Virus record (IMG/VR): IMGVR_UViG_2740892439_000006
Span: 1 to 53,794 of that record
Direction: 5' to 3' (one strand)
Source: a virus
Lineage: Duplodnaviria > Heunggongvirae > Uroviricota > Caudoviricetes
DNA: 53,794 nt
Under the pieces are notes generated by a model. The model was not told the origin of the DNA, did no database searches, and saw only the letters and a program-made list of their open reading frames with translations. The stretch's first letter is position 1. Each line of letters starts with the position of its first letter. A program made the position numbers and the translations under genes. Shown in pieces: positions 8,812-39,806 of this stretch.

Positions 8812-8815
8812 CTCA

Positions 8816-21492: not shown

Positions 21493-21513
21493 AGCTTATC
21501 CTGATTACTTTTA

Positions 21514-21714
21514 TTATGGATAGTTAAAAGATTCAACAGGTGATGGTGGCTGAATTGGGTAATGTTTCTTCTCGTACTCCTCAATGAGAAGACTCATAAC
21601 CTCAAAGAAATCACCTTCCGGAGTATTCATTTCCGGTTCGTTATCGAACATCGGTTCGACAGCACGCAGTGCGGCCTCATAATCTTGTTCTGTACGGATA
21701 GGTTTAATGTTCAT
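21514..21714 (-). CDS. HigA-like N-terminal domain fragment (no HTH)
   Basis: 66 aa; TEQDYEAALRAVEPMF...EPEMNTPEGD resembles N-domain of two-domain HigA antitoxins. Confidence 0.4.
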   Translation of the reverse strand: MNIKPIRTEQDYEAALRAVEPMFDNEPEMNTPEGDFFEVMSLLIEEYEKKHYPIQPPSPVESFNYP

Positions 21715-21726
21715 TAATTACAAAGG

Positions 21727-21758
21727 AAAGCCCACTTGCTAAGTGGGCTTTTTGTATG
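21727..21758. terminator. terminator-like hairpin
   Basis: stem agcccactt/aagtgggct followed by ttttt. Confidence 0.35.
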
Positions 21759-21770
21759 TGTTTTACTATA

Positions 21771-22109
21771 TCAGGCTGCTTTTTTATTCAGGTTCCGCTG
21801 AGAAATAAATTTTTCAGCAGTATTGATACGACTTAACTCTTCCTGAACGCGCATATCATTTTCGACTTCCCACAGGTCTACTGCGGTCTGAAGATTAATC
21901 CAAAAATCTACAGAAGTATCGAATGCTTTTGCCAGGCGATATGCCATATCCATCGTTAGCTTACGATTATTATTAACAAGAGCACTTACGGTGTTACGAT
22001 GAACATGAAGTATTTCTGCTAACTCGTTGATCTTCAGCTCTAACGGCTCCAGGTATTCGTACAGCAGGATATCACCTACGGTCGTCGGTTTTCTGGTTGC
22101 CTGTTTCAT
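21771..22109 (-). CDS. higA: HigA-family antitoxin (XRE HTH)
   Basis: VGDILLYEYLEPLELKINELAEILHVHRNTVSALVNNNRKLTMDMAYRLAKAFDTSVDFWINLQ matches HigA family pattern. Confidence 0.7.
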   Translation of the reverse strand: MKQATRKPTTVGDILLYEYLEPLELKINELAEILHVHRNTVSALVNNNRKLTMDMAYRLAKAFDTSVDFWINLQTAVDLWEVENDMRVQEELSRINTAEKFISQRNLNKKAA

Positions 22110-22179
22110 TTTTTGCCCTTACTAGCGTGCGTATTAAGTGGACTCTGGTCAGAACCCGGTCCGTAACCGGGTATCTGTT

Positions 22180-22482
22180 TTAGTATTTGTGAGGGTCGAG
22201 ATACAAGTCCTCGGCCTTTCCGTTAACCCACTTAAAAATTAACCTATATTGCTTATTCACCCTTACTGATGAATAGCCATTTAGCTTCCCTGACAGTTCC
22301 TCATACCGATTACCTGGTGGTGATCTTAAATCCTTACAGGTAGTTGCGGCATTGATAATGTCCAACTTCCGTGACAATGTCATATGAATATCAGGAGGTA
22401 TCTTTCTATGTGGTGTTGAAAATTCAAAAAAATCATCAAGCCACGCATCCCTGAAATCCTTTATGTTAATTTTTTTGGTCAT
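22180..22482 (-). CDS. higB: HigB-family toxin (RelE/ParE superfamily)
   Basis: LRSPPGNRYEELSG...YSSVRVNKQYRLIFKW matches HigB pattern; upstream of higA. Confidence 0.7.
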   Translation of the reverse strand: MTKKINIKDFRDAWLDDFFEFSTPHRKIPPDIHMTLSRKLDIINAATTCKDLRSPPGNRYEELSGKLNGYSSVRVNKQYRLIFKWVNGKAEDLYLDPHKY

Positions 22483-22632
22483 TAGTCATTTGATCCTCCG
22501 TGATGATTACCGAATGCCATAACTATAGCGCACCGTTGCACTGTGCGCAAGTGCATTTTATGAATTCCCCCTCCTTCATCCAAAATCACAATCTCCAGAA
22601 AATCTTCCTTTCGATACCTGACAGATCGACCT

Positions 22633-23436
22633 TTGAGGATGCTTATGGGCCGTTTTGACGAATGGTTTGCTGACGATGCAAACCTGGCAAGTAAGGAGTC
22701 AGAACATGACAGCACGCAGAGAGAAACGCCAGCGCCGATTGAAGCGAATGCAGGAGGCGCGCCGGAACATGGCAATACAGGTTCGGATTCATTCAGCATT
22801 CTGGAAGAGCAACCCGCCGCCAAAGCTGATAGCCATGATAATTTTGCTGATAGCAACGGTGGCCTTACTCCGGATGCTGGCGAATCAGATATAGCCATAC
22901 TTCCATCTTCCCTGGCTGGCAGAGAACCGACTCCACAGTTAAAAGCACGCTATAACGGGCATAAAGCCTTTAACGACCAAATCCGCGCAGACTGGATGCT
23001 GATTATTGAATCCAGCCCAGACGCGTTTCAGGCTCTCTTATATCGACCAGATGTTGGCACATATGGGGTAGTCAGCGACGAAACAGGAGAAGAGTCATTC
23101 ACTGAACTGGATAACAACCAACGCGAACTGACTTACCAGGAACCTGAAATCGTTTATGTGCTGGATAACCCTGACGGGCGTGACTCTTTCCATGCGATTG
23201 ACGCAGACGGTGAGCAGGATGGCTTAACCGATGATGTTCTGATTCTGCGTATTGCAGCAAATAACGTCCCCGTCGGCTCAATTCTTGAATGGAATGAAGA
23301 GATGGTAAACGGCGTAGCGCGCCGCTGGTGGTACGTGCACCGTATTTTTAGCTACGGCACACAGCATGTTGGTTCGCTTTACTACTGCATACCTGCCAGG
23401 AATTTTGATACGACTCAAAACGGAGTGATCGAATGA
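22633..23436 (+). CDS. hypothetical acidic protein (start uncertain)
   Basis: 267 aa track ORF; 3-prime end coupled to next gene (ATGA); N-terminal part overlaps an SD-preceded small ORF in another frame. Confidence 0.35.
   Translation: MRMLMGRFDEWFADDANLASKESEHDSTQRETPAPIEANAGGAPEHGNTGSDSFSILEEQPAAKADSHDNFADSNGGLTPDAGESDIAILPSSLAGREPTPQLKARYNGHKAFNDQIRADWMLIIESSPDAFQALLYRPDVGTYGVVSDETGEESFTELDNNQRELTYQEPEIVYVLDNPDGRDSFHAIDADGEQDGLTDDVLILRIAANNVPVGSILEWNEEMVNGVARRWWYVHRIFSYGTQHVGSLYYCIPARNFDTTQNGVIE
22706..22894 (+). CDS. small basic protein with C-terminal transmembrane helix
   Basis: Strong RBS taaggag 7 nt upstream of ATG; 62 aa, R/K-rich N-terminus then hydrophobic stretch. Confidence 0.35.
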   Translation: MTARREKRQRRLKRMQEARRNMAIQVRIHSAFWKSNPPPKLIAMIILLIATVALLRMLANQI

Positions 23437-24200
23437 CTTCAAATAAAACCCTCCTGGCGCGAACAGGTGAATGGCAAACCTCACGCACAGGAAAATTCCA
23501 GACCACGGGCTTTGAAAACGTGGATAACGCGTTTGCGACGCTAATCAGCAACATTTTTTCTGATATCTTACTGGTGGCCCCCGCGCCGGAAGAAAAACGC
23601 TTTGCGTCATTCCTGAATCGTCCACCAGCAGAGCGTGTCTATGTGGCCCGTTTCGACAATGCGATCGAGTTTCTTAAAGCAGTTCGTCGCGCAAATGCCG
23701 GGCAAGGGAGAAAACCTGAAAACCAGAACATTAACCGGGATGCTCTCCCCCTGGTCAATATCTCACGCACTATGGATATCAATTATATCAACGATGATCA
23801 GCAGATTGACCGCAAAAAAGTAGCCAGTTTTTGCGAACCGGATACCGGAATGCCTTTAGCAGAACTGGAATACACCCAGGCCATTCTGACGTATGACGTT
23901 ACGTTAATGGCAACTGATAAAGCGACCATGAGTCTGATGTGTAATTCGCTGGGCGCACGCCTTCGCCTGATGACAGGTACACAATTTGAAGCAACCACTC
24001 ACCTTGTTCGTGTCCCGGTCCCGCTGATTTGCTCGATACAGGATTCCAAAGAAGTCGGCTTTACGGATGTTTCAGCACCAATTGGAGAAGAGCGTATTTA
24101 TGCCACACAAGCGCCGATAAGTGTGATTGCAGACGTGATCACAGCATGGGAGTTGGACGCAAAACGTATTATTACCGAAACCTCGATATCTATGGGGTGA
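23433..24200 (+). CDS. putative tail/baseplate structural protein
   Basis: 255 aa; translationally coupled series leading to spike-like gene. Confidence 0.4.
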   Translation: MTSNKTLLARTGEWQTSRTGKFQTTGFENVDNAFATLISNIFSDILLVAPAPEEKRFASFLNRPPAERVYVARFDNAIEFLKAVRRANAGQGRKPENQNINRDALPLVNISRTMDINYINDDQQIDRKKVASFCEPDTGMPLAELEYTQAILTYDVTLMATDKATMSLMCNSLGARLRLMTGTQFEATTHLVRVPVPLICSIQDSKEVGFTDVSAPIGEERIYATQAPISVIADVITAWELDAKRIITETSISMG

Positions 24201-24203
24201 TAA

Positions 24204-25184
24204 GTGGCCCAGGAGTTACAACAATATTTTCTACAGTCAGTGCTCATTAACGATAACAAAGTGCCACGAGACTGGATTTTTACCGCAGTATATGTAGAAA
24301 AAACCAGCCTCAAAGCCCCTTTGCTAAAACTGGAAATTCATGACGCTACCGGCACCGTAATTGATGACTGGAAAGCCAAATACGGTGCATCGCTGGTGGC
24401 TGAAATGGGCGATCCAAACGGTAATGCAGGCACTTTTAAAACAGATTTCTTTGTTACGTCTGCAATGCTGGCTGGTGATGTTGTTACCGTTATTGCTGTC
24501 AGTGAAGACGTGCGCAGGTTTAAGATCCCCTCCCCGCGCACAAATTTACATACCAACAAAACACCAGACGCTATATTCAAGGCATATTCCGGCAAGCTTA
24601 AAATTACCAGCAGCGTGCTAAAACGCGCAGTTACATATCATCTGAATGCCGGTGACAAACCGTCAAAAATGCTTTCGGAGATAGCGCGAGACAAAGGTGC
24701 ATTATGTTGGGTATGCCGGGGGGAATTTAACTTTTACACCCTGGCTGATCTGATGAAGCAAACGCCATCATTTACCTACGAGGGGAATAACCCTAAAGCA
24801 GAATACACTTTGTCCAAAATGCGCCTACTCCAACAGGAACATGCGACAACAGCAAAGAATCAATATCGTTTTGTTGGGTATTCCATGACCGATGGCTACG
24901 TCGAATATGGCGATAGCTCACTCCCAGTGCGTTATATATCCGACTCTGATATGGAAACTCTTCGCAATATGCAGCTGTCTCTCGTCCCCAAAATGGATAT
25001 AGAAGTCGCAGGCAATCCTGATATAAAACCGGGGATGGTGATAGAGATTATCGTATACCGCTATGACCAGGAAAACCGCATTGATGAATCAATGCCCCGT
25101 AAGCTGATAGTAAAAAATGTTGCGCACTTTGAAGACCGCGTAGGCTACACAACACGAATGATATTGGGAGTGCCGAACAAATGA
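24204..25184 (+). CDS. putative baseplate structural protein
   Basis: 326 aa; GTG start after upstream stop; coupled to next gene. Confidence 0.4.
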   Translation: MAQELQQYFLQSVLINDNKVPRDWIFTAVYVEKTSLKAPLLKLEIHDATGTVIDDWKAKYGASLVAEMGDPNGNAGTFKTDFFVTSAMLAGDVVTVIAVSEDVRRFKIPSPRTNLHTNKTPDAIFKAYSGKLKITSSVLKRAVTYHLNAGDKPSKMLSEIARDKGALCWVCRGEFNFYTLADLMKQTPSFTYEGNNPKAEYTLSKMRLLQQEHATTAKNQYRFVGYSMTDGYVEYGDSSLPVRYISDSDMETLRNMQLSLVPKMDIEVAGNPDIKPGMVIEIIVYRYDQENRIDESMPRKLIVKNVAHFEDRVGYTTRMILGVPNK

Positions 25185-25834
25185 AGCGTAGAGCGCAAAT
25201 TGTTGGAACTGTGCACCCGGCAGGGCTTATGCGTGCTCAAGTCCGTGTTTTACCTGACTGGAATGGCGTTCCTGATGACGATCTACCCTGGGCGGAATAC
25301 CTGTTACCCATCGGAAACGCTTTTGTACCCACAGTCAAAGGTGACCTGGTCTGGGTAGAGTTTCCTTATTTAGATGTTAACGGTCGAATAGACACCAGAC
25401 GCCCAATGATAGTTGGTGCCGCTCAGGATGCACCGGGAGGAATTCCAAACGTTGCACCAGAAGCATCTGGCAAAGGCAACGGCTGGACGCCGCCGGAAGT
25501 AGATGGAGCACCTCCCCGCCCCCAAATCTCAGCAACGAAAGACTTCGTTATTCACCGCAACAATATTCTTGAAGTACGAACTGCTGGTGGCGGCTATGAA
25601 ATTGCCAATACGGCAGCAGGCTCAAGGATTGGCATGAATGAGTCCGGGCAGATATATATCATTGGTCCGGCTGATGTAATCGTGAATGCAGGAGGGAGTG
25701 TTAACGTCAAATCAGCCAACAACATCAATGTTAAAGGGGAAAATATTGCTGTCACCGCTAACGGAGACATAGCTTTCAAGGCAGGAGGAACCTTTCAGGC
25801 CACTGCTAGCAACTTCGATTTCAAGAAAGGATAG
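25181..25834 (+). CDS. baseplate spike / gpV-like protein
   Basis: N-terminal OB-like region (GTVHPAG..AQVRV...GDLVWVEFP) and C-terminal Gly/Asn-rich beta-helix-like repeats. Confidence 0.5.
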   Translation: MKRRAQIVGTVHPAGLMRAQVRVLPDWNGVPDDDLPWAEYLLPIGNAFVPTVKGDLVWVEFPYLDVNGRIDTRRPMIVGAAQDAPGGIPNVAPEASGKGNGWTPPEVDGAPPRPQISATKDFVIHRNNILEVRTAGGGYEIANTAAGSRIGMNESGQIYIIGPADVIVNAGGSVNVKSANNINVKGENIAVTANGDIAFKAGGTFQATASNFDFKKG

Positions 25835-25843
25835 AAAATGCAC

Positions 25844-25887
25844 CCATTTGTGTTAGATAATTAATATGTATTTTCTAACACAAATGG
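25844..25887. promoter_or_regulatory. palindromic operator-like site D (perfect 14-bp arms, TGTTAGA-N16-TCTAACA core)
   Basis: ccatttgtgttaga ... tctaacacaaatgg immediately upstream of rdgC start. Confidence 0.55.
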
Positions 25888-25893
25888 TGAGAC

Positions 25894-26799
25894 ATGAGAT
25901 CAGTCGCTTTCAAAAATATCTTCATCTATCGTCTTTCACGCGAAGTTAGCTGGGATACTGCAGAAGTAAATGCAGCCCTTAGCAAGTTTGTGTTTACCCC
26001 ATGCGGTTCTCAGGATATGGCTAAAGCTGGTTGGACCCCCGTTCTTGGCGACAACCTCACCCATGAATACCAAGGTTTTCTTCTGATACAGCATAAACGA
26101 GAGGAAAAAATCCTACCCTCTCAAGTGCTCAAAGAAGAGTTACAGAAAAAAATCCTGACACTTGAAGAAGAGCAAGACAGAAAGCTGAAGAAGACTGAAA
26201 AAGATTCGCTGAAGGATGAAGTGCTTCACTCTCTGCTTCCTCGTGCTTTCACGAGAAAATCAGTCGCTAAAATCCTGATAGACCGAAGCAATCATCTGGT
26301 TTTTGTCGAGGCCAGCAGTGCTAAAAAAGCAGAGGATCAGCTGGCTTTGTTACGGAAATCGCTTGGCAGCTTGCCCGTTGTCCCCTTCTCTCCGAAAGAC
26401 CCATTAGAACTGACCATCACTGGCTGGATTAAAAATGGCTTCCCGAACGGTTTCCGTGCCGGTGAGGAAGCGACCTTAAAAGCATTGCTTGATGATGGCG
26501 GCGCGGTCCGCTGCAAAAAAGTGGACCTGCTATCCGACGAGATCATGAGTCATATAGAAGCTGGTAAGGTTGCAACCACAGTTGCGGTTAACTGGCAAGA
26601 CCGTGCATTTTTCAGACTGAATGACGATATGAGTATCAAGGCTTTGTCGTTCAGCGACGAATTGTACGACCAGAACGACGATATTGATCGAGAGGATGTT
26701 GCGCAACGATTTGACGCTGACTTTATCCTGTTTACTGCTGAATTATCCGCGATGTTCACTTCGCTGGTGGAGGCCGTTGGTGGTGAAGCAGAACGTTAA
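25894..26799 (+). CDS. rdgC: recombination-associated protein RdgC homolog
   Basis: [76 protein letters not shown] match E. coli RdgC as recalled. Confidence 0.85.
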
Positions 26800-26812
26800 C
26801 AATAGACCTCTG

Positions 26813-27463
26813 ATGGTGAGTCTTTGTGATTTCACGGGGAAAATGGTCGCCCCCTGGCTGGAGCATGGTATAGATGCTGTTATCGTCGATCCACAACACG
26901 CAGAGACCAGAGATGAGCTGATGCAATCAGGCGCAGTTCTGACACGTATCAGTGCGATTATCGATAGTGATGAAGTTTATGCTTTTCTCCGAAATAATTT
27001 ACAACGTATTGTGTTTTTAGCTGGTTTTCCGCCGTGCACGGACCTTGCTGTTTCCGGTGCGCGCTGGTTTGCGCATAAGGCTGACAAAGATCCGTTTTTC
27101 CAGTTCAAAGCGATGCAGGTCGTCTGGCAGTGTTACGATATTGCAAAGATGATTGGTTGCCCGTACATGATTGAAAACCCGGTCAGCCAAATATCGACAT
27201 TCTGGCGTAAACCTGATCACATCTTCCATCCTTACCACTTCACTGCATATTGCAAGGAAGACAATTACACCAAAAAAACATGCCTCTGGAGCGGGCAAGG
27301 CTTTGTCATGCCTGATGCCCTAATGGACGAATCATTAGGCAAGCCAGATAACAGAATCCATACCGCGCCACCTGGACCTGAAAGGGCTAATTTTCGAAGT
27401 GCTACTCCGCATGGATTCGCAAAGGCAGTTTTCGAAGCGAATAAGGGGGTGCTCTATGAGTAA
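26813..27463 (+). CDS. C5-cytosine methyltransferase-like protein (short, no obvious TRD)
   Basis: FLAGFPPCTDLAVSG (PC motif IV-like) and MIENPV (ENV motif VI-like); start at ATG 26813 just after rdgC stop. Confidence 0.4.
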   Translation: MVSLCDFTGKMVAPWLEHGIDAVIVDPQHAETRDELMQSGAVLTRISAIIDSDEVYAFLRNNLQRIVFLAGFPPCTDLAVSGARWFAHKADKDPFFQFKAMQVVWQCYDIAKMIGCPYMIENPVSQISTFWRKPDHIFHPYHFTAYCKEDNYTKKTCLWSGQGFVMPDALMDESLGKPDNRIHTAPPGPERANFRSATPHGFAKAVFEANKGVLYE

Positions 27464-28361
27464 ATCTATAGCAAGCATAGCCATAGAAAAACAGGATACG
27501 ATGGCTGAAATTAGCTATATGCGCACCATTCGGACTCAGGATGAATATGAGCGCCCGATCTTCAAATGGGTAGGCGGTAAATTCTCAGAGTTGCCTACAG
27601 TGCTTGAGCATCTACCACACGGCAAGCGGTTAATAGAACCATTCGTTGGTGGCGGTTCCGTATTTACAAATGCAGGATTTCGCCACAACCTGCTTAATGA
27701 TATTAACGGTGACCTGATTAACTTCTATCAGACATTGCAGCGAGAAGGACATTCGCTCGTCACGCTGTCATATAGTTTTTTCCAAAATTACAACAACGCT
27801 GACGCTTACCTCGAAGTGCGTGAGGCATTTAACAGAGGAAAGTATGACCAGCTACATCATGCTGCCGCCTTTTTGTACCTTAATCGGCACTGTTTTAATG
27901 GCGTAACGCGGTACAACCAAAATGGCGAGTTCAACGTGGGGTATGGCAAATACAAAGCGCCCTACTTCCCACATGCAGAGATGGAGGCATTTTTGGCTGA
28001 TGACGTACTCAAAAACACGTCCTTTGTATCAGGTGACTTTGCTGGCGTCATCGAGGCGGCTGGTGAAGGCGATGTGATTTTTTGCGATCCGCCGTATGAA
28101 CCGCTGCCGGATACAGAAGGGTTTACCAGTTATTCAGGAAATAGCTTCCGTTTCGACGAACAGAAACGGCTGGTATCTCTATTGGTGGAAGCCCACCAGC
28201 GCGGCGCTAAGGTAGTGATAACAAATAGTGGTGCGCCAAACATCCGTGAACTATATGAAGGAAACGGGTTTAAAGTACATCATATGGCAGCCAGACGGTC
28301 GGTGTCCTGCAAGGCGTCAACACGTGTAGTTGCTAACGATATAATTGCAATAATGAAGTAA
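27456..28361 (+). CDS. dam: DNA adenine methyltransferase (Dam family)
   Basis: FKWVGGK, EPFVGGGSV, FLYLNRHCFNGVTRYN, CDPPY motifs; start at MSKSIASIA with RBS aggggg overlapping upstream stop. Confidence 0.8.
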   Translation: MSKSIASIAIEKQDTMAEISYMRTIRTQDEYERPIFKWVGGKFSELPTVLEHLPHGKRLIEPFVGGGSVFTNAGFRHNLLNDINGDLINFYQTLQREGHSLVTLSYSFFQNYNNADAYLEVREAFNRGKYDQLHHAAAFLYLNRHCFNGVTRYNQNGEFNVGYGKYKAPYFPHAEMEAFLADDVLKNTSFVSGDFAGVIEAAGEGDVIFCDPPYEPLPDTEGFTSYSGNSFRFDEQKRLVSLLVEAHQRGAKVVITNSGAPNIRELYEGNGFKVHHMAARRSVSCKASTRVVANDIIAIMK

Positions 28362-28393
28362 AAAACGCCGCAGTAGCGGCGTTTACTTTTTTA
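28362..28393. terminator. bidirectional rho-independent terminator between dam and glnS
   Basis: stem cgccgc/gcggcg, loop agta, A5 upstream and T-run downstream. Confidence 0.7.
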
Positions 28394-28409
28394 TGTGGCG
28401 AAATACCTA

Positions 28410-30071
28410 TTAACCTAACTTCGCCCAGGTATCACGCAGCCCAACGGTGCGGTTAAATACCGGTTTTTCCGCCGTGGAATGGCGGCTGTCGAGGCAGAAA
28501 TAACCTTCACGCTCAAACTGGAATGCTTTACCCGCTACCGCGTCTTTCAGCGACGGTTCAGCAAAACCCTGTTTGATCACCAGCGATTCCGGGTTAATCA
28601 CCGACAGGAAATCATCCGCAGCACCTGGGTTCGGCACGCTGAACAGACGATCGTACAGGCGGATTTCAACCGGCAGCGCATGTGCCGCGCTCACCCAGTG
28701 AATAACGCCTTTCACTTTACGACCATCTGCCGGATCTTTGCTTAAGGTGTCGGCGTCATAAGTACAGAAGATGGTGGTGATATTGCCTTCGGCATCTTTC
28801 TCCACGCGTTCAGCCTTAATGACGTAAGCATTACGCAGACGCACTTCTTTACCCAGCACCAGACGTTTGTACTGCTTGTTAGCTTCTTCGCGGAAATCGG
28901 CGCGGTCGATCCAAATCTCACCGCTAAACGGCACCTGACGGCTACCCATTTCCGGTTTGTTTGGATGGTTCGGCATGGTGACCATTTCGCCTTCGCCCTG
29001 GTAGTTTTCGATAACCAGTTTCACCGGATCGATAACCGCCATTGCGCGCGGGGCATTTTCGTTGAGATCTTCACGGATGCAGGATTCCAGCGACGCCATT
29101 TCAATGGTGTTGTCCTGCTTGGTCACGCCGATGCGTTTGCAGAACTCACGAATAGAAGCCGCAGTGTAACCACGACGACGCAGACCGGAAATGGTCGGCA
29201 TACGCGGGTCATCCCAGCCTTCAACGTGCTTGTCGGTCACCAGCAGGTTCAGCTTACGCTTGGACATCACAGTGTATTCCAGATTCAGGCGCGAGAATTC
29301 GTACTGGCGCGGGTGAACAGGAATGGTGATGTTGTCCAGTACCCAGTCATACAGACGACGGTTGTCCTGGAACTCAAGCGTACACAGAGAGTGCGTAATA
29401 CCTTCCAGCGCATCGCTGATGCAGTGGGTAAAGTCGTACATCGGGTAGATGCACCACTTGTTACCAGTCTGGTGGTGTTCAGCAAATTTAATGCGGTACA
29501 GCACCGGATCGCGCATTACGATAAATGGCGACGCCATGTCGATTTTCGCACGCAGGCAGGCTTTACCTTCTTCAAAACCACCGGCACGCATTTTTTCGAA
29601 CAGCGCCAGGTTCTCTTCAACGCTGCGGTCGCGGTACGGGCTGTTTTTACCCGGCTGCGTCAGGGTGCCACGATATTCGCGGATCTGTTCCGGCGTCAGT
29701 TCATCAACGTACGCCAGGCCTTTATTGATCAGTTCAACAGCATAGGCATGGAGTTTGTCAAAATAATCGGAGGAGTAACGGATGTTGCCAGACCAGTGAA
29801 AACCTAACCATTCAACGTCGTTTTTAATCGACTCGACGTACTCGATATCTTCTTTTACCGGGTTAGTGTCGTCGAAACGCAGGTTGCACTGGCCTTTATA
29901 GTCCTGGGCGATCCCGAAGTTCAGGCAGATAGATTTCGCATGACCAATATGCAGATAGCCATTCGGTTCCGGCGGGAAACGGGTATGTACTGTGGTGTGC
30001 TTACCACTGGCCAGATCTTCATCGATGATCTGACGAATAAAGTTAGTCGGGCGGGCTTCTGCCTCACTCAT
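28410..30071 (-). CDS. glnS: glutaminyl-tRNA synthetase
   Basis: 553 aa; N-terminus [24 protein letters not shown] and HIGH-type motif region match E. coli GlnS as recalled; extreme C-terminus reads ...DTWAKLG. Confidence 0.95.
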
Positions 30072-30260
30072 TGTGGATTCCTCAAAGCGTAAACAACGTA
30101 TAACAGCGTATGATCTTATAAGCCGAATAGGCTGACAACCACTAGTTGATTAGAAATTGCTTTCTATCGTTATTTCAATAATGAGCTTTTTCATGAAGCC
30201 CACTTTTGCGCATAAGTAAATTAATGACAAATGGTACACAATTGGAACCAAAAAGGATGT

Positions 30261-30298
30261 AAAGGTGCACCAAATTAGTGGTGTATTGGTGCACCTTT
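30261..30298. promoter_or_regulatory. 12-bp perfect inverted repeat between glnS upstream region and partition operon
   Basis: aaaggtgcacca-N14-tggtgcaccttt; no adjacent T-run, so operator rather than clean terminator. Confidence 0.4.
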
Positions 30299-30339
30299 GG
30301 TTCAAGACTTTTTAAGTTCTAAAACCAACCTGAAAGACT

Positions 30340-30627
30340 TTATTTTGCTTCCTCAGACTCCGCTAACATGAGGATAGCATGGCGGATCATATTCAATTTG
30401 CTGCGATTATGCTTTTTACTTAACGCATCAAGTACTTGGTACTCGTATTCATTGAAACCAACACGAATAGATTTAAAATCACGTGGAGCGTCCTTATCGA
30501 GCACTTTGTTGTCTTCTGGTTGCTCACCCGGCACCAAATCAGCCTTACTGGCAAAATCCTCAATTCGGCGTTCAAGATCGGGGTCTTTTACTTCGGGGGC
30601 TTTTACCGATTTACGAGGCTTAATCAC
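30340..30627 (-). CDS. partition RHH protein (ParG-like)
   Basis: 95 aa; downstream of and overlapping small ParA; C-terminal MIRHAILMLAESEE ribbon-helix-helix-like. Confidence 0.5.
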   Translation of the reverse strand: MIKPRKSVKAPEVKDPDLERRIEDFASKADLVPGEQPEDNKVLDKDAPRDFKSIRVGFNEYEYQVLDALSKKHNRSKLNMIRHAILMLAESEEAK

Positions 30628-31261
30628 TTAATAACTCCTTAACCAACATCTGGATTTCACCTTTAGCTTTCCCGTTGTCCATCTCAACAACGCCCTTCCC
30701 TTCAGCCATGCAATCGCGGTAAACCTTACGATCACGAATGATGGTTTTCAGCAACTTCAGTTGCGGATATTCAGCCAGGTACTCTTTGGCCTCATTGGTT
30801 TCATTCACAACCGGATTGGATGGGGCCATTGTTAAGACTGCGAACGCCTTAATGCTAGGATTAGGCATCAGGTCCAAAGCCTCTTCAAACACTTCAACAA
30901 AGTGTGCCAGCGTGTCTAAATCTGGTTGAGATGGTCTGAATGGGACCAACACAATATCTGCAGCGGTTATGCCTGTACGCATCTCTTTGCTATCGCGCCC
31001 GGCTGTATCAACAACTACAAATTCATAACGCTTATCCAGATCGAGAAGTGTTTCTCGAATATTACCAAACTTCTGGACACAATGAATTACAGGAGAAACC
31101 TCTGCCGTGTTACGGTCAGCTGCCCAGCGGGCAGCTGTTCCTTGCTTGTCTGCATCTAGTAACACTACATCCTTATTTGCGCGGGCAAGCTCCGCACAGA
31201 TGTTTACGCTTGTGGTTGATTTTCCACAGCCACCTTTTTGGCTGACTACCAATATAATCAT
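30620..31261 (-). CDS. parA: small ParA-type partition ATPase (type Ib)
   Basis: Deviant Walker A VVSQKGGCGKST; start at MIILVV with RBS gagg. Confidence 0.7.
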   Translation of the reverse strand: MIILVVSQKGGCGKSTTSVNICAELARANKDVVLLDADKQGTAARWAADRNTAEVSPVIHCVQKFGNIRETLLDLDKRYEFVVVDTAGRDSKEMRTGITAADIVLVPFRPSQPDLDTLAHFVEVFEEALDLMPNPSIKAFAVLTMAPSNPVVNETNEAKEYLAEYPQLKLLKTIIRDRKVYRDCMAEGKGVVEMDNGKAKGEIQMLVKELLSD

Positions 31262-31504
31262 ATCCGTTCCTCGGTGTGATTTTGGTATCAAAACGGTTCC
31301 AGATAAGAGCCTTTTTGATGCGGGACAGGCTCTATAATGGAGTCATTAATGTTTGGCAAAGTATAACATCAATCAGACCAAATACACCTTATATTGCATC
31401 CTATTTAACACGAAATCAGCCCAAAATTGGAACCAGATACAAAATAACCCCATAACAGCACCTAAGTGGTACCAAACAAACACTAATTAGACACCATTAA
31501 GGCA

Positions 31505-31535
31505 TAAAAAAGGCTGCAATTTGCAGCCTTAAACC
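31505..31535 (-). terminator. rho-independent terminator after parR
   Basis: stem aggctgca/tgcagcct with A-run on plus strand (T-run on minus). Confidence 0.5.
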
Positions 31536-31548
31536 AGCACATCTTCTG

Positions 31549-31893
31549 TCAATCAGGTAGAGAGTCAGCTAGATTGCGCGCCGACGCGCTTTTGGCTACA
31601 AATTGCTCCTTCACTGGCTCAATGGAGGCAGGGCGCTCCTCAACCGCAGCTGGTAGTTCCAGGAAGGATGCCAGCATTTTTCGGATCAGCTCCGGGTTAT
31701 TGTCTTCGGTCAGCAGGGAAGCCAGTAATCCTGGAAGCCTGCTATCGACTTCTCCCAGCGCAAGCCCTGCCAACAATGCAGTTCTTGCCATATCGCTATG
31801 TTTTTTTATCTTCTCGCTCGCCGCCTTTTCATTGGCATAAGCCTCTGGGCGAAGATAAATCATCACTTTCTTACGTTCCTGAGACATGGACAT
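31549..31893 (-). CDS. parR: ParR-like centromere-binding protein
   Basis: 114 aa immediately downstream of parM; RTALLAGLAL resembles R1 ParR as recalled. Confidence 0.6.
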   Translation of the reverse strand: MSMSQERKKVMIYLRPEAYANEKAASEKIKKHSDMARTALLAGLALGEVDSRLPGLLASLLTEDNNPELIRKMLASFLELPAAVEERPASIEPVKEQFVAKSASARNLADSLPD

Positions 31894-31899
31894 ACCTCG

Positions 31900-32879
31900 T
31901 TAACCGATTGCTTTCAGGCCATGAACAAGAGCAAGTTGCGGGTCATCCGCCACGAAGAAACGGTCATCACGAATATTAACTTGCACGCGAATTGCATCTG
32001 CCACCAGCGGTGCGCCACCACCGATCACCATGACATGCGTATATCCTTTAAAGTCGCCAATCACATCAAGAACGCGGGTACGCAGACGGTCAATGCTTGC
32101 GGCAATGGCCTTTTTCACATCACCAATCGCTGATGGGTCATTGATATTGTCGTTCAGATAATCTTCATCGTGGCGGTTAATAATGAGCTGATCCACATTG
32201 TAATTTGACGTTTCGGTATTGGCCCTTGCAAGTGCTTGCCTTACTTCCCTGGTGACCAGTGATACACCAAGATTCGAATCGCCAAAAACACGGGAAACTG
32301 CCGTCATTTGTCCAGCGACCATTGAAACATCAAGGTAGTTCCACCCAAATCGACGATAAGAACAGAGTGGGCAGGGTTCAGATTGTCGCACAGGCTAATT
32401 CCCGCCGGGATAGACTCCGGGCGTACCGTAACTTTCTTAATAGTGAATACATTGCCTTTATTCAGCGTGACGGGGCGCATAAGACTGGCTTTCTTGCGCT
32501 CGATGTTATCGAGATTGTATTGCGCGTCGTCGTCGTAAAACTCTGCCAGAGGCAGCGTGACCACAATTTCTACTTCCTGCGGCTCAATACCGCTTGTCAG
32601 CAGGGCATGGTGAACAGCCAGGACGTTAAGCGGGCTGTATTGCCATTCCACATTATTCGTCGGCAGAACATCTGGCGATATCAAGTCGTATGAATACTTT
32701 TCGTCGTCAATGACATAGTTAAACGGCTTGCCCGCACCAAATGTTGCTGACCATCCGCGCTTAAAGCTGTTAGGGCTGATGTGAGTGCGAGTTTCCCCGT
32801 CGTGCTCCCACAGCATTTTGATATTGGTTGAACCATCATCGATAAAAATGCGCATCTTCTTGCTCCACTTCTGAGACAC
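31900..32879 (-). pseudogene. parM: ParM (StbA) actin-like segregation ATPase, frame broken after DLGGTTL
   Basis: Two ORFs (32304..32879 and 31900..32391) each match R1 ParM halves ([11 protein letters not shown]; GYTHVMVIGGGA); frame restored by ttgatg->ttggatg. Confidence 0.75.
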
Positions 32880-33060
32880 ATTTGAGAATCAAAATGTAAT
32901 TTTAAAAGAGAAGCACCCAAAAATCCACACCAAACGAGATAAAAAAGAGCGCTTGTTGAGTTTATTTTGAGAATATCTTAATCACCCACTGAATGATGGT
33001 CTGATGGTGAGATTTATTTGAGAATGAATTGAGAATACAAAAATATTCCGAAATTTAACT
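32880..33060. repeat. parC-like centromere region with direct TTGAGAAT repeats
   Basis: At least five ttgagaat copies upstream of parM. Confidence 0.45.
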
Positions 33061-33121
33061 CTCCGTTTGAATGACGAAATAACAAAGTGATGACAATAGG
33101 AGGATAACCAGGAGGTGAAGA

Positions 33122-33406
33122 ATGAGCGCAATAGCCACCAGCGACACCCTTTGTTCTGGTCACGGAGGATTTCCGCCGCGACTGGTAGCTGAAACCGTTC
33201 CCTGGTTCACCGTTAACGGTAAGCCAGTTGTTGTAGATGGTGCCATGTTTCCCAGTCACACTGACGGTAACAGTGCACATCCAGGGGCAGCTGTATCGAC
33301 GCGAGTATGGTTTTCGATAGGTGGAAAGGGAGTTGTCTGTGTAGGCGATCCGCTTTCTTGTGGTTCTGTTATCGCCAACGGCGAGGATATTTTTCAGGTT
33401 GCATAA
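33122..33406 (+). CDS. PAAR-like spike-tip protein (tentative)
   Basis: 94 aa, Gly-rich, GKGVVCVGDPLSCGSVIANGED motif; RBS aggagg. Confidence 0.4.
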   Translation: MSAIATSDTLCSGHGGFPPRLVAETVPWFTVNGKPVVVDGAMFPSHTDGNSAHPGAAVSTRVWFSIGGKGVVCVGDPLSCGSVIANGEDIFQVA

Positions 33407-34212
33407 TGCTTGATTCAATAGGTGAAGTTAAAGCCTTCAAAATTCTGTCAGATGCCGGTATCTCTACACCAGAATCTATAACCATAAGCCGGGCAGCTTC
33501 TGTAAAAGCCTCATCGCTCGCCAGCGCCATACAGGGAATAGTTCACGCCGATAAAACCTATCCTGATTCTGTTTCGGCCTGGACTACTCAATTGCTTGGC
33601 TTTTCTGAACAGCTCAATGAGGCCAGCAAAGCGTCTTCATTACTGGCTGATTCTCTTTCCCCATACACCAAGCCATCAGAGCTGTTACAGATGAAGATTG
33701 GCTGGGAATGCTACGCAAAAGGTAACGAGCTGACCCCCATACCTGCTTTCGCCCTTGTTGAGGGAATGGGGAATGTTTCCATTCCGCAATCCCTAACGGA
33801 CGCATTGACGGCGCTAAAACTTGATGCTCTGAAAACCGCCATGAACGCCATTAACGCAAAAATTGAAGCTGCCGGAAGTGCTGGTGGTGGTGAAAGCGAT
33901 GGTGGACAGGGTGGTGCTGGGGGCGCTCAGGCTCCAGTCATTACTCAGGATGAAATTGATGCTTTACGGGAAGCAGTGACAGCCGCCGAAGTTTTACTCT
34001 CCGAAATTAACTCAGCAAGTGAGGGTGTCGTAGCCCTTACAGGTCGCATTAAAACGTCAACCACTCAGGCAACCAAAGGTTTAGAGAACGCTGTCGCCAT
34101 CACGTTAACTGGTTCTCTACTGGATAATGCAGTAATGAGTCCGGCAATCAGTTTAATCATGCCACAAGGCGTTATCGATGCGCTCCAAAAGAACACCAAA
34201 AAGGAACCATAG
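33406..34212 (+). CDS. hypothetical virion-associated protein
   Basis: 268 aa from MLDSIGEV, TAATG overlap with upstream stop; Gly-rich linker. Confidence 0.4.
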   Translation: MLDSIGEVKAFKILSDAGISTPESITISRAASVKASSLASAIQGIVHADKTYPDSVSAWTTQLLGFSEQLNEASKASSLLADSLSPYTKPSELLQMKIGWECYAKGNELTPIPAFALVEGMGNVSIPQSLTDALTALKLDALKTAMNAINAKIEAAGSAGGGESDGGQGGAGGAQAPVITQDEIDALREAVTAAEVLLSEINSASEGVVALTGRIKTSTTQATKGLENAVAITLTGSLLDNAVMSPAISLIMPQGVIDALQKNTKKEP

Positions 34213-34267
34213 AAACACTACTTAGGCACACAATAGGATGTAAATTGGTACATATTTAACACCAAAA

Positions 34268-34741
34268 ATGAACCTGAAGAGGATGGTTTTGAAAAAGATA
34301 ATTTTGATTGTAATTGCGCTTTTAGCCATTTCTGGAATTTACCGAACAACGACGGCAGTTATCGAACACATCAGGTATGTCCGATCGCTTGAAGACTCAA
34401 AATCACAACTGGAAAGCACGAACAACACGCTTTCTACCGCATTACAGTTAAGTGAGAACGCTCGCTCAGCCATGCTGACCGAAAACGAAAGAATTAAAGC
34501 ACTGGAAAAGGAGTACCAGCGCAAAACAGCAGAACTGAATGCCAACCTAATCAAACAACGAGAGGAAAGCCAGAATGAAATCACTCGCCTTGAAAATGCG
34601 TTACGCCGTGCTGGGATTAACGATGTGCGTGTGCCTGATGACGTTATCAGGATGCAGCGGGAACGGGCAAAAGCCATCAACCAGCGTGCCAGTGAAAATT
34701 ACCGTAGAAGCCACCAGCAAGCCGCAGGCAAATCTGATTGA
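34268..34741 (+). CDS. Rz-like inner-membrane spanin
   Basis: N-terminal TM helix then long coiled coil; embedded out-of-frame lipoprotein ORF. Confidence 0.55.
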   Translation: MNLKRMVLKKIILIVIALLAISGIYRTTTAVIEHIRYVRSLEDSKSQLESTNNTLSTALQLSENARSAMLTENERIKALEKEYQRKTAELNANLIKQREESQNEITRLENALRRAGINDVRVPDDVIRMQRERAKAINQRASENYRRSHQQAAGKSD

Positions 34742-34907
34742 TTACTCCCCTTGTTTAGTGCCAGAGGACACGCCAGTGCTGTTAAACAAGTATCCGACAT
34801 ACGCTGAACAGTTATTCAGCACGATCGACGAATGCAACCAACGAAACGCACTGAATAACCAAAGAAACAGGGAGATTTGGGAAGGGAAGGGGGATCAAGG
34901 CTCCTGA
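34575..34907 (+). CDS. Rz1-like outer-membrane lipoprotein spanin
   Basis: Lipobox LSGC after signal peptide; overlaps Rz-like gene in another frame. Confidence 0.5.
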   Translation: MKSLALKMRYAVLGLTMCVCLMTLSGCSGNGQKPSTSVPVKITVEATSKPQANLIDYSPCLVPEDTPVLLNKYPTYAEQLFSTIDECNQRNALNNQRNREIWEGKGDQGS

Positions 34908-35353
34908 AGCCAGATGTCCTGGCTGTCAGCTTCTTCGAAACCGTGACAGACGTTAAAGTCACTCAAGCGATACTGACGCTGACGGCCTCTATTTCGCTCA
35001 TGCCAATGCATATATCCACCAGCAAATGCCAGCGGACAATCACTATAGTCTATGTAACCAATACCATTCCCCAAACGTGCTTCGCGCGCACCGGCTTTCC
35101 AGGACAGTAGAAAAGAGTCACGATCCGCCAGCATAACAACAAAATCGTCCGGATCTCCGATACAGTGAAGAATACCTGCCTTACATAACTGCTTGAGCGC
35201 TTTGGACTGGCTCAGGATGTCTTCTCCGTAATACTGAAAACAATCATCAACAACAGCGGGATAGCCTGCCGGGGGATTCAGGCTGGTTGGTATAGCTGAC
35301 GCGATCGACAGCATTAAGCGATATTGTGTTTTTGATGGGTTAACGTGGCTCAT
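34895..35353 (-). CDS. hypothetical protein
   Basis: 152 aa ORF. Confidence 0.4.
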   Translation of the reverse strand: MSHVNPSKTQYRLMLSIASAIPTSLNPPAGYPAVVDDCFQYYGEDILSQSKALKQLCKAGILHCIGDPDDFVVMLADRDSFLLSWKAGAREARLGNGIGYIDYSDCPLAFAGGYMHWHERNRGRQRQYRLSDFNVCHGFEEADSQDIWLQEP

Positions 35354-35369
35354 TTTGTCCCTTGTTTAC

Positions 35370-35762
35370 TCATTGTCGCCATGCGTTTTTTAACTCAGGA
35401 ATATCTGCCATTTCAATTAACTTGCGAAGTCCAGCACTGACTTTCCCATTACCAACCATAGCAAGCCAATCTCTTACTGCTTTCGGCATGTAGAGCGTTG
35501 CTGTTACCGGCTCTTCAACCCTGGCAGGACATCCGCATACAGGCCATTTAATTGATTCCATAACTTCGGAGGCTGGGGTGAGGGCGGGGACATTGAGTAT
35601 ATCTCTACCAGAAAACTGGATAACGATCCGTTCAGCTAGCGAGAGTATCTCACTTTCGGCAAGAATTGATGCCAACTGCGCCTCAACAAGAAAGCGACTT
35701 GTTGTGTTCAGAGAGTGGCTCTTAGCGCCATTTTTATACGAAACAAAGATTCGATACGCCAT
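35370..35762 (-). CDS. hypothetical protein
   Basis: 130 aa ORF. Confidence 0.4.
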   Translation of the reverse strand: MAYRIFVSYKNGAKSHSLNTTSRFLVEAQLASILAESEILSLAERIVIQFSGRDILNVPALTPASEVMESIKWPVCGCPARVEEPVTATLYMPKAVRDWLAMVGNGKVSAGLRKLIEMADIPELKNAWRQ

Positions 35763-35777
35763 AACTCTAATGATTTG

Positions 35778-35808
35778 TGTTAGAAAACTAAAATTAAATC
35801 ACATAACA
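35778..35808. promoter_or_regulatory. operator-like site E (good left half, degenerate right half)
   Basis: gTGTTAGAAAACTAAAAT shares 17-bp core with site A; sits between divergent genes upstream of structural operon. Confidence 0.35.
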
Positions 35809-35919
35809 ACATGCGTGTTAATATATTTTATTTTACTAAGCCTATTGACTAAATCACAAAGTATGTATTGTTAGCACGTCAAAAGAACCTTCACGCCGCG
35901 CCCGAATTTAGGCTTAACC

Positions 35920-37617
35920 GTGAATAAAAACATTCAGCCAGCTCGTGATCGCGAGCGCGAGATTATGAATCGGGCGGCAAGCGTCATGGCTATGACCGTC
36001 GATCCGACCACCGATGCAGCAGGCAACATGATTGCTGACCAGGCAGTAATGATGGAAAACCTGGATAAAGCAATCCAGAAAGTGCCTATGTTTGAAGGCG
36101 TAAATCCAGAGGTCGCTCGTCAGATCACTGGTGGGTGGGCTATGTCTCTGCATGAGTATAAACGTCAACATGGTCATTACCCGGCAAGTGACATCCTGGC
36201 GAACGCACACATGGCTCTTGAACGCCTGATGACTGAATGTGCCAGTGATACCCATGAAGGCACGGGTAAGGCAATGTTTGAGTCTGTCGCGCAATCAATG
36301 CGTAGCTCTGACGGCGTAATGAAAGTTGCTCAATATGCTGCTCTAATTCTGCCTGCCTCTCTGGGCGCTGCTACCAGTGATGCCTGTACTTTTGTTCCTT
36401 GTGATCGTGACGAGTCAAATATTTATGAACTGGTCAACGTAGCAGGCACAAAATTCGGCACCTTCAAACAAGGTGACGAACTGAATATGCAGTCAGCTGG
36501 TGTTTATTCTCAAATGAAGCGCCTGTATACCCTTTCCACTAAAGGGGATGGCAGCACCAAAACCTTCCAGTTCGACATCCAAAATTTTGAGGGACAATCC
36601 TGCCCGCTTCGCGCTGGTTATAACAAACTGCTGATCAACCGCAAACCGTCCAAAGTTGACGACGGCGATGGCAACCTTTATTTCAATGCTAAAGACAGCA
36701 AAGGTAATGCTTTCTCAGCGACTGCCAAAGTTGCCTATGACACTGGTGTCATTGACATTACATTTACCCAGGCTCCGCCAGAAGGTACTGAAATTGCTGT
36801 TCAGGTCGAAATTAACATCGAGCGCAATCCAAGCCTGATTCCGGTGATCAACCAGGCTATGCGTAAGTACGAAGTTCGTCCGTCCCAGTACGTAATTGCT
36901 TCCGAACACACGGTAATGTCCGCATCCGATTTAAGCCGTGAGCACGGCCTTGAATTAGCGGCACTTCAGTTCTCCGCGATGCGTAACTGGATCTCCCATG
37001 AAACCGACATCATGCGTCTGCGCACCCTGGTATTCCATACCGTTTATGGTCGTGAATTTGATGTGGCTCTGCCGGAAGCTCAAAACTATGAGTCCTGGGT
37101 CGGCCTCCTGCGTCACGTAGTAAACGCTCTGTCTCAAGAAATGGCAAATCGTACCCTGACAACGGGTATTCGTGGCGGCTTTGCTGGTGGTGACGCCGCG
37201 AACTTCCTGCGCTCTCTGCCTCCACAGCACTTCCAGATCGCACCAGGTTACGTTCAGTCGCCGTATGTACAGTACATCGGCACCCTGTTTGGCACGATTC
37301 GTATTTACGAAGTGCCGCAACCTGTCTGTGAGCAATTCCAGGCACAGGGATATGACTTCGGGCTGGATGACATCTTCTTCTATGGGCGTGGCGAAGGCAT
37401 CGGTAAAGCCGGTCTGATTGCTGGTGATGCAGTCCCAGCAATCCCTTACGTGCACGAAACCAATCCGTCTCTCGTTAACCGTACCACTCTCTGGGGCAGT
37501 GCCATCAACGAAGTACATCCTCGCAACGGTGAAAACTACTTCACCCGCCTGCGTCTGACTCGTGCCAAAGAAGGTGCTATCGACATGCTGACAGGCAAGG
37601 TTAACGAAAAAAAGTGA
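35920..37617 (+). CDS. large structural protein (putative major head protein)
   Basis: 565 aa; GTG start; position directly upstream of Ig-like and sheath genes. Confidence 0.4.
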   Translation: MNKNIQPARDREREIMNRAASVMAMTVDPTTDAAGNMIADQAVMMENLDKAIQKVPMFEGVNPEVARQITGGWAMSLHEYKRQHGHYPASDILANAHMALERLMTECASDTHEGTGKAMFESVAQSMRSSDGVMKVAQYAALILPASLGAATSDACTFVPCDRDESNIYELVNVAGTKFGTFKQGDELNMQSAGVYSQMKRLYTLSTKGDGSTKTFQFDIQNFEGQSCPLRAGYNKLLINRKPSKVDDGDGNLYFNAKDSKGNAFSATAKVAYDTGVIDITFTQAPPEGTEIAVQVEINIERNPSLIPVINQAMRKYEVRPSQYVIASEHTVMSASDLSREHGLELAALQFSAMRNWISHETDIMRLRTLVFHTVYGREFDVALPEAQNYESWVGLLRHVVNALSQEMANRTLTTGIRGGFAGGDAANFLRSLPPQHFQIAPGYVQSPYVQYIGTLFGTIRIYEVPQPVCEQFQAQGYDFGLDDIFFYGRGEGIGKAGLIAGDAVPAIPYVHETNPSLVNRTTLWGSAINEVHPRNGENYFTRLRLTRAKEGAIDMLTGKVNEKK

Positions 37618-37764
37618 TGGTGGCGAACGTGTCGGTATCACCAACGTCACTTGACGTAGATGAAGGTGAAACTATCGCCGCGAACACTTCAAAGGCACAG
37701 AAAAAAACAAAGCAGAAGTAAGGCAAAAACACGCCCCTGAATAAGGGGCGTTCAGGAGAAAAGA

Positions 37765-38043
37765 ATGGCAAACATTCAAGTAACTATCACGCCATCTGAC
37801 GCAACAGACAAATCTTTCACTGTTGAGTCAGATCACCCTGAAATTGTCCAGGTTGATGGCACTACATGTACCGCTCTTAAGGCCGGGCAGGCAGTGCTGA
37901 CAATCAAAACAAATGACGGCAATAAAACCGCACAGTGCACAGTCACTGTTAGGGAGGCACCTAAAAGCGTAAGCGCCGTCAGTGTTGAACCAACTACGAA
38001 AGAAGTAACCGTAGGCGACAACTTCACGGTAAGCGAATCCTGA
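37765..38043 (+). CDS. bacterial Ig-like (Big_2) domain protein
   Basis: TALKAGQAVLTIKTNDGNKTAQCTVTV typical Big_2 signature. Confidence 0.55.
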   Translation: MANIQVTITPSDATDKSFTVESDHPEIVQVDGTTCTALKAGQAVLTIKTNDGNKTAQCTVTVREAPKSVSAVSVEPTTKEVTVGDNFTVSES

Positions 38044-38110
38044 TCAGAGGCTGCCCATTAACCGTGGGTAGCCTTGCCTCGTTCTCTCGCTTTAGAGGAT
38101 AAGAACCAGC

Positions 38111-39769: not shown

Positions 39770-39806
39770 TTTATAACCCCCGCTAAATGATGCGGGGGAG
39801 AGAGGT

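Follow-up and report, generated by a model that had tools for sequence, protein, structure and literature searches.

A glutaminyl-tRNA synthetase (GlnRS) gene, glnS, was examined in IMG/VR virus record IMGVR_UViG_2740892439_000006, positions 1 to 53,794 of which make up the window analyzed here (53,794 nucleotides, nt; coordinates given without an accession refer to this whole stretch). The gene lies between a convergent dam gene and the co-directional partition genes of a mobile element. Over positions 20000-40000 the window matched Escherichia phage D6 with 97.1% identity at 99% coverage, and it is assigned on this basis to a D6-like, P1-related plasmid prophage, of which it forms part. Over the matching region the D6 record and a near-identical plasmid annotate capsid, sheath, baseplate, RdgC, Dam, ParA-like, and StbA/StbB proteins, and the D6 record lists orf62, 'glutaminyl-tRNA synthetase, similar to E. 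coli GlnS', between a dam-type methylase and the ParA-like/StbAB module. Comparison with chromosomes and related plasmids identifies the captured piece as a whole glnS transcription unit, native promoter through native terminator, of about 1.8-1.9 kb (28362 to about 30240). The features of the locus are as follows.

27399..28361, plus strand: dam, encoding a D12-class N6-adenine methylase, convergent with glnS (Pfam PF02086, E=2e-56).
28363..28384, both strands: bidirectional intrinsic terminator hairpin AAACGCCGC-TACT-GCGGCGTTT (terminator scan of both strands).
28385..28409, minus strand: spacer of 25 bp from the glnS stop codon to the terminator, not alignable to E. coli chromosomes.
28410..30071, minus strand: glnS coding sequence (CDS), encoding a 553-amino-acid class I glutaminyl-tRNA synthetase, intact, with HIGH and MSK motifs.
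29722..29867, minus strand: diverged 'relic' segment, CDS nt 205-350, codons 69-117, with I97, K106, and V112 (mismatch table, BLAST, alignment).
30072..30159, minus strand: captured 5' leader with promoter and Shine-Dalgarno sequence (GAGGA), placed by the BLAST boundary and an upstream alignment.
30110..30138, minus strand: predicted native glnS sigma-70 promoter, TTGTCA-17-GATCAT, with a Dam site (GATC) in the -10 hexamer (promoter scan).
30160..30339, no strand assigned: intergenic region from the glnS promoter to orf61, delimited by comparison with glnS-bearing and glnS-less relatives.
30340..31291, minus strand: orf61 (95 amino acids, no Pfam match) and a small ParA-type ATPase gene, co-directional with and upstream of glnS (open reading frame list, Pfam).

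The list of open reading frames (ORFs) contains an intact GlnRS gene here, a 553-amino-acid frame with an ATG start at 28410..30071. Its translation covers three Pfam profiles fully, PF00749 (E=6e-130), PF03950 (E=7e-34), and PF20974 (E=6e-26), which gives the protein a catalytic Rossmann-fold domain and two anticodon-binding beta-barrel domains. Both class I signatures are present, HIGH within ..YLHIGHAKS.. and MSK within ..VMSKRK.., and the protein aligns end to end with the crystallized E. coli GlnRS in the Protein Data Bank (PDB; chain 1o0b_A). It is more than 99% identical to chromosomal E. coli GlnS and differs from the K-12 protein (NC_000913 b0680) by four amino acids and one residue fewer: the internal substitutions are V97I, Q106K, and I112V, and the C-terminus reads ...DTWAKLG* (553 amino acids) rather than ...DTWAKVGE* (554). 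A preliminary description of this DNA had reported the full-length GlnS-like frame and had given the chromosomal ending as ...DTWAKVGE; the ORF list, Pfam domains, and PDB and K-12 alignments bear out the former and the K-12 comparison the latter. We identify the product as a glutaminyl-tRNA synthetase nearly identical to an enzyme of proven activity, with aminoacylation of tRNA-Gln as its predicted function. A GlnRS variant resistant to a drug or toxin was considered and appears unlikely, as the three internal substitutions are conservative and unfixed among plasmid copies.

Homology to the K-12 chromosome spans 28414..30159 at 95.7% nt identity by BLAST, beginning 87 bp 5' of the glnS start codon and fading within the last three codons. 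The captured stretch thus delimited includes the promoter, which occurs with the same sequence upstream of chromosomal glnS in every E. coli allele aligned. Dam has been reported to repress this promoter by Plumbridge & Soll 1987, cited in PMC11741368, where the effect was reproduced (log2 fold change +1.08 upon dam deletion). The leader and promoter segment, 30072..30159, is 88.5% identical to K-12 and 99-100% identical among the E. coli-type D6-like copies compared, and position 30159 is the limit of E. coli chromosome homology on the 5' side. From 30160 to about 30240, the next ~80 bp occur only in glnS-bearing D6-like plasmids; no match to this flank was found outside D6-like plasmids, and none among the sampled chromosomes. 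The remainder, about 30240 to 30339, is backbone that is present in glnS-less relatives as well and carries GGTACAC/GGAACCAAAA-type repeats. Located 3' of orf61, these GGTACAC, GGAACCAAAA, and GGTGCACC motifs include an inverted repeat, look similar in the glnS-less relatives, and may serve the ParA/orf61 system as a partition site or as an operator. The terminator scan found no minus-strand terminator between orf61 and glnS, so transcripts of the co-directional par operon may also extend into glnS. Rfam reported no RNA element in the vicinity of glnS.

On the 3' side, the glnS stop codon is followed by 25 bp and then by a hairpin of the native type, AAACGCCGC-N4-GCGGCGTTTTT, which reads AAACGCCGC-TACT-GCGGCGTTTTTT in the base-by-base comparison. 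An identical stem stands 3' of chromosomal glnS in E. coli, E. ruysiae, Salmonella, Citrobacter, Enterobacter, Kluyvera, and Pseudescherichia. On chromosomes it lies 10-26 bp after the stop codon, except where repetitive extragenic palindromic (REP) elements intervene, as in E. coli and E. ruysiae (60-198 bp). At the position of the plasmid spacer, E. coli chromosomes have REP-containing spacers of 60-198 bp; the 28385..28409 spacer is 98-100% identical in all error-free D6-type copies compared. The T-run of the hairpin is abutted by the stop codon of dam. The preliminary description had called this structure the dam terminator, an assignment we could rule out because the hairpin is missing after the P1 homolog dmt, where the ban promoter and operon follow directly, and because another hairpin, AAAGCCCC-N4-GGGGCTTTT, is found in D6-like plasmids that lack glnS. 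The structure at 28363..28384 is the native glnS terminator, which now stands where it can stop transcription of the convergent dam as well. Homology between this dam CDS and the dam of glnS-less relatives extends to the end of the stop codon, the final residues being AIMK* here, ATLK* or ATLN* in the empty-site plasmids, and ATMK* in E. fergusonii plasmid L005, and the cassette boundary is therefore placed at 28361/28362.

Since the native glnS terminator lies inside the captured unit, the 3' junction abuts the dam stop codon and is not in the last codons of glnS, where the altered C-terminus had earlier suggested a recombination junction. The ending KLG* can be reached from KVGE* in frame through the point changes GTA>TTA and GAG>TAA. 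The tail is also naturally variable, as in Kluyvera (...DTWVG*) and the E. fergusonii plasmid (...KVEG*), and several deposited GlnRS chains do not include it (the alignments cover query residues 9-547 for 1nyl_A and 1-548 for 1euq_A). The range first given for the gene, 28362-30340, corresponds to the space between the stop codons of dam and orf61; the ORF itself is confined to 28410..30071.

The preliminary description had offered two explanations, a captured host gene that renders its carrier merodiploid or a chimeric assembly, and the former is the one upheld by phage D6, about 100 plasmids, and the retention of chromosomal glnS in carriers (below). A chimera would require a chromosomal glnS to have been mis-joined into a plasmid contig; the 1.75-kb near-identical repeat shared by plasmid and chromosome could mislead assemblers, and metagenome contig L118 (OFLS01000123.1) does link D6 par genes to chromosomal chiP/chiQ via glnS. 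However, phage D6 shares the gene order dam-glnS-orf61-parA with about 100 independent complete plasmids, which come from different laboratories, hosts, and sequencing platforms, and the same two junctions were confirmed base by base in about 20 independent loci, including the deposited phage D6 genome. The glnS of the window also has plasmid-specific flanks, spacer, C-terminus, and 5' haplotype, none of which is found on any sampled chromosome. Because both junctions recur in phage D6 and about 100 complete plasmids, we treat the gene as a real feature of the element and an assembly chimera as excluded, the probability left to it being negligible. In contig L118 (locus 2768-11635), chiQ/chiP are 97.6% identical to K-12 and the orf61/parA/stb part is 98.4% identical to window positions 28414-35158. 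Either short reads were joined falsely across the 1.75 kb of shared glnS in this contig, or a D6-like plasmid has integrated there into chromosomal glnS by a Campbell-type event. Integration of the plasmid at chromosomal glnS was rejected, as no D6 par region was chromosomal in 5,426 complete E. coli genomes and the only hybrid is L118, which may itself be chimeric.

Two diverged D6-like plasmids, NZ_CP173545 and NZ_CP022228, lack glnS and show the empty site (NZ_CP173545.1, 6045-7286; NZ_CP022228.3, 4881-6149). In both, dam is followed by the AAAGCCCC-N4-GGGGCTTTT hairpin, 135-144 bp, and orf61-parA. These plasmids contradict the published claim of glnS in every D6-like genome (PMC6799933), which needs to be qualified. 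The locus shows the hallmarks of a phage cargo gene, or moron: glnS has its own predicted promoter (30138..30110) and terminator (28363..28384), stands between the dam and orf61-parA operons, is absent from syntenic relatives (the two plasmids above and P1, where ban follows dmt), and has an atypical G+C content (51-52% across glnS, 43-47% in the flanks). The 5' junction GAAAGCAATTTCTAATCAACTAGTGGTTGTCAG and the abutment of terminator and dam are also found in an E. fergusonii-type plasmid, whose neighboring backbone genes are 70-90% identical to those of the E. coli type (synonymous divergence, dS, 0.57 to saturation), compared with 95% for glnS. As both junctions are alike in all copies examined, a single old capture is indicated; afterwards, either glnS would have been homogenized or the cassette would have moved between mosaic backbones.

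The plasmid alleles are 96-98% identical to chromosomal E. coli glnS, differ from one another by up to 3.4%, and do not share the same nearest chromosomal alleles. A table of polymorphic sites combined with maximum chi-square tests revealed that, save for a diverged 5' segment, they are mosaics with tracts swapped with chromosomal alleles. In the D6 allele, 32 of 32 sites left of about nt 740 are of plasmid type, whereas 25 of 29 to the right are of O157-chromosome type (p=0.0005); in the L090 allele, 23 of 27 sites on the left are of CB209-chromosome type and 10 of 12 on the right are of plasmid type (p=0.001). The diverged segment, nt 205-350, was designated the relic. In most plasmid alleles, 13-15 of its 146 nt differ from any given E. 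coli or E. ruysiae chromosomal allele sampled, and E. coli chromosomes differ among themselves by 0-3 mismatches over nt 210-350. The relic is nearest to the E. fergusonii-type plasmid allele, with other genera farther away. A relic-specific 41-mer matched only three D6-like contigs in the metagenome collection, and a scan of genome contigs for a donor returned, among the matches listed, no chromosome of E. coli, E. fergusonii, E. albertii, or E. marmotae. The glnS donor probably belonged to a lineage of Escherichia other than E. coli and E. ruysiae.

Ratios of nonsynonymous to synonymous divergence (dN/dS) were 0.007-0.05 in all glnS pairs compared. Among variants private to plasmid alleles, defined against only six chromosomal alleles, 43 are synonymous and 7 nonsynonymous (ratio of nonsynonymous to synonymous polymorphism, pN/pS, 0.047; p=2e-21). 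This signature points to purifying selection on the plasmid copy. The only 'disrupted' copies, of which two were examined, resemble indel errors of long-read assemblies: NZ_CP031917 has five scattered 1-bp deletions, with neighboring genes also flagged as frameshifted, and CP088384 contains a single additional A within a homopolymer stretch, so both were rejected as pseudogenes and are probably sequencing errors.

These data bear on the idea that glnS is an unselected passenger, of no benefit and kept intact by gene conversion from the chromosomal copy and by a harmless position between two convergent operons. Conversion has clearly occurred repeatedly, some D6-like lineages manage without the gene, and the protein is essentially identical to that of the host. 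However, purifying selection is still seen in stretches left untouched by conversion, namely the relic (about 3 nonsynonymous among 14 differences) and the E. fergusonii-type allele, which is 5% from every sampled allele and has 75.5 synonymous to 6.5 nonsynonymous changes; the private variants stand at 43:7. Moreover, in Salmonella hosts the plasmid encodes an E. coli-type enzyme whose gene is 84% nt identical to the resident glnS; conversion should be rare there, and the copies are intact. We therefore consider an unselected passenger unlikely.

Almost every E. coli carrier retains glnS on its chromosome as well and is thus merodiploid. The 5,426 complete E. coli genomes contain 5,428 chromosomal and 81 plasmid glnS places, with at least 5,419 chromosome records matched, and each of the 5,425 matching genomes has a place at 80% coverage or more. 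These counts gave no sign that E. coli carriers have lost or degraded the chromosomal gene. One of the 5,426 'complete' genomes gave no megablast match to glnS, and a few chromosomes may have two copies, the 5,428 places exceeding the minimum number of matching chromosome records.

Merodiploidy frames a second alternative, a takeover in which the plasmid copy has become the main source of GlnRS, the chromosomal copy is down-regulated, and loss or inactivation of the plasmid gene leads to poor growth, which would stabilize the plasmid. There is a tested precedent in cysS of plasmid pBT1 (PMC6333337), and the same role has been proposed for D6-like glnS (PMC6799933). The gene adjoins and is co-directional with the partition module, and a pBT1-family Citrobacter plasmid has independently gained a glnS beside its cysS. 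Against a takeover stand the retention of chromosomal glnS in essentially all E. coli carriers, the promoter shared by both copies including its GATC, which leaves no obvious basis for silencing the chromosomal copy alone, and the two toxin-antitoxin systems that the plasmids already possess (PMC6799933). We rate this alternative as rather improbable.

A third possibility is that extra GlnRS serves the lytic cycle by raising the charging of tRNA-Gln during phage protein synthesis, much as P1-type phages supply tRNA genes (Asn, Thr, and Ile in P1; Asn, Thr, Ser, and Met in pYU39_89; PMC6799933). Under-methylated, newly replicated phage DNA would be expected to derepress the Dam-sensitive promoter. 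Yet the proteome of the element is not Gln-rich (3.9% Gln), neither a tRNA-Gln gene nor any other tRNA gene is present in the window, the promoter is of the host housekeeping kind and not a phage late one, and the gene is located in the plasmid-maintenance region. A role as lytic helper thus seems very unlikely, and a special glutamine demand of the phage proteome was rejected on the same Gln content and lack of tRNA genes.

The explanation we favor, and regard as likely, is that glnS is a complete and functional cargo unit that was captured once, probably acts as a second source of GlnRS for lysogens, and is kept by purifying selection. An ancestor of the D6-like plasmid prophages would have acquired the unit once from an Escherichia-type chromosome; inserted at the point where the dam operon and the partition module converge, the unit would have displaced dam's own terminator. 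In the plasmid state the gene would be transcribed from its native Dam-sensitive sigma-70 promoter, lysogens would most likely gain a GlnRS supply nearly identical to the E. coli host enzyme, and the extra or backup enzyme would presumably benefit the element. Because of its 96-98% identity to the host copy, the gene repeatedly exchanges tracts with it by homologous recombination. Several points weigh against this explanation. At least two D6-like lineages lack glnS, which is thus dispensable for the phage-plasmid life style. The 3-4 residue differences from the host enzyme are conservative and unfixed among plasmid copies, and no new enzymatic property is apparent. On a low-copy (P1-type) plasmid, the gain in GlnRS dosage would be only about twofold. 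The private-variant test relies on its small chromosomal reference, and part of the low dN/dS of the plasmid alleles comes with chromosomal tracts acquired through conversion.

A bolder proposal would make glnS more than a spare gene: a possible pBT1-like main GlnRS supply whose loss or inactivation would impair growth, possibly tuned between lysogenic and replicative states by the adjacent Dam acting on the promoter GATC, and at the same time a portable 1.75-kb homology patch through which an element packaged in virions continually swaps alleles of an essential gene with hosts across species. If contig L118 is real, a D6-like element might occasionally integrate at chromosomal glnS. We put this forward as speculation that is probably wrong in its full form.

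The 4-kb dam-glnS-parA block matched 135 plasmids in PLSDB, 97 of them with one place covering at least 80% of the query, and these carriers are mostly 'non-mobilizable' plasmids of about 90 kb from E. coli, Salmonella, and Shigella. The block is contiguous in 69 complete E. coli genomes. The D6 par region was found at 103 places in 101 of the complete E. coli genomes, all on plasmids and none on a chromosome, a distribution that shows extrachromosomal maintenance; these 101 carriers outnumber the plasmid glnS places (roughly 80). orf61, the ParA-type ATPase gene, and stbB/parM together constitute a plasmid-maintenance module. A P1/P7-type immunity I region is also present, with Rfam matches to the C4 antisense RNA (14890-14977, plus strand, 76 bits) and isrK (14767-14845, plus strand, 59 bits).

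Elsewhere in the backbone, the rdgC/cytosine-methylase/dam segment (25800-28420) is 91.3% identical to D6, compared with a mean of 97.1% for the surrounding 20 kb. The D6-like backbone is strongly mosaic: between pKOr024_2 and NZ_CP173545, parA is 99% identical and stbB only 62%. The parM/stbA gene (31900-32879, minus strand) is split into two ORFs of 191 and 163 amino acids by a 1-bp deletion in a C-run at about 32336; relative to the intact 957-bp gene of pKOr024_2, the split reflects a genuine frameshift or else an error in sequencing.

Essential housekeeping genes are rare on mobile elements, and their presence raises the question of what the element gains. D6-like phage-plasmids are frequently encountered in human, livestock, and food isolates of E. 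coli, Shigella, and Salmonella, and their glnS has been noted in print and never explained. The present comparisons document the identity, anatomy, single origin, merodiploidy, mosaicism, and selection signature of the plasmid gene; the anatomy, mosaicism, and selection signature are new detail, as are the empty sites. A native unit with a Dam-sensitive promoter beside a phage dam, a single capture, empty-site relatives, purifying selection, and exchange with the host together yield testable hypotheses, and the temperate phage emerges as a vehicle for essential-gene alleles across strains and species.

The occurrence of glnS on D6-like phage-plasmids was already known: the gene is annotated in D6 and was treated in a 2019 paper that described it as present in all D6-like genomes, called it a moron, and speculated on a role like that of cysS on pBT1 (PMC6799933). 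The closest counterparts of the window gene are orf62 of phage D6 (MF356679 / NC_050154) and the glnS of D6-like plasmid prophages such as pYU39_89, which occupy the same place in the order dam, glnS, orf61-parA-stbB-stbA. The D6 gene is 97.5% nt identical to that of the window and shares with it the ...AKLG* end, the spacer, the terminator, and the 5' junction; the difference is allelic only, the 3' half being of K-12/O157-chromosome type in D6 and resembling RIVM/CB209-type chromosomal alleles in the window. Chromosomal E. coli glnS (b0680) has a homologous GATC promoter, leader, CDS, and terminator stem, but it stands in the context nagE...glnS...chiP rather than dam...glnS...orf61, has REP 3' spacers and a ...KVGE* end, and lacks the plasmid haplotype at nt 205-350. 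Further GlnRS homologs were seen in IMG/VR, one of 85% amino acid identity on a 26-kb contig (IMGVR_UViG_2713897121_000001, 3001-4656) and others of 48-55% on contigs of 36-159 kb (L097-L099); these could be prophage host flanks or genuine phage-borne glnS.

The Citrobacter cronae plasmid p.S175-1.4 (NZ_CP060445), a conjugative member of the pBT1 family, likewise has a full-length glnS with promoter region and terminator-like hairpin. Its gene differs from that of the window in being of Citrobacter type (89.9% identical to C. murliniae and 86% to the window), in encoding a 555-amino-acid protein with a ...AKAGE* end, and in residing on a MOBP/MPF_I backbone. Unique among the pBT1-like plasmids found, it is interpreted as a second, independent plasmid capture. 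In NZ_CP060445.1 (3331-7155), cysS is followed after about 320 bp by glnS in tandem, and the cysS region is 95-96% identical to CP022036, CP022141, CP022136, and NC_019335, all of which lack glnS. The cysS of pBT1 itself, from Salmonella Typhimurium D23580 (Canals et al. 2019, PMC6333337), resembles D6 glnS as an essential class I aminoacyl-tRNA synthetase gene on a low-copy plasmid, with an intact chromosomal copy and a proposed maintenance role. Experiments demonstrated that cysS(pBT1) is required and that chromosomal cysS is down-regulated (PMC6333337). The chromosomal cysS of D23580 is unchanged in sequence (identical to that of strain 4/74), so chromosomal decay is not strictly needed for a takeover. 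The two systems differ in that cysS(pBT1) is 79% nt identical to the host gene, whereas D6 glnS is 96-98% identical to E. coli glnS and recombines with the host copy, and in that pBT1 is a conjugative plasmid, whereas the carrier of D6 glnS is a phage-plasmid whose glnS is known here from its sequence.

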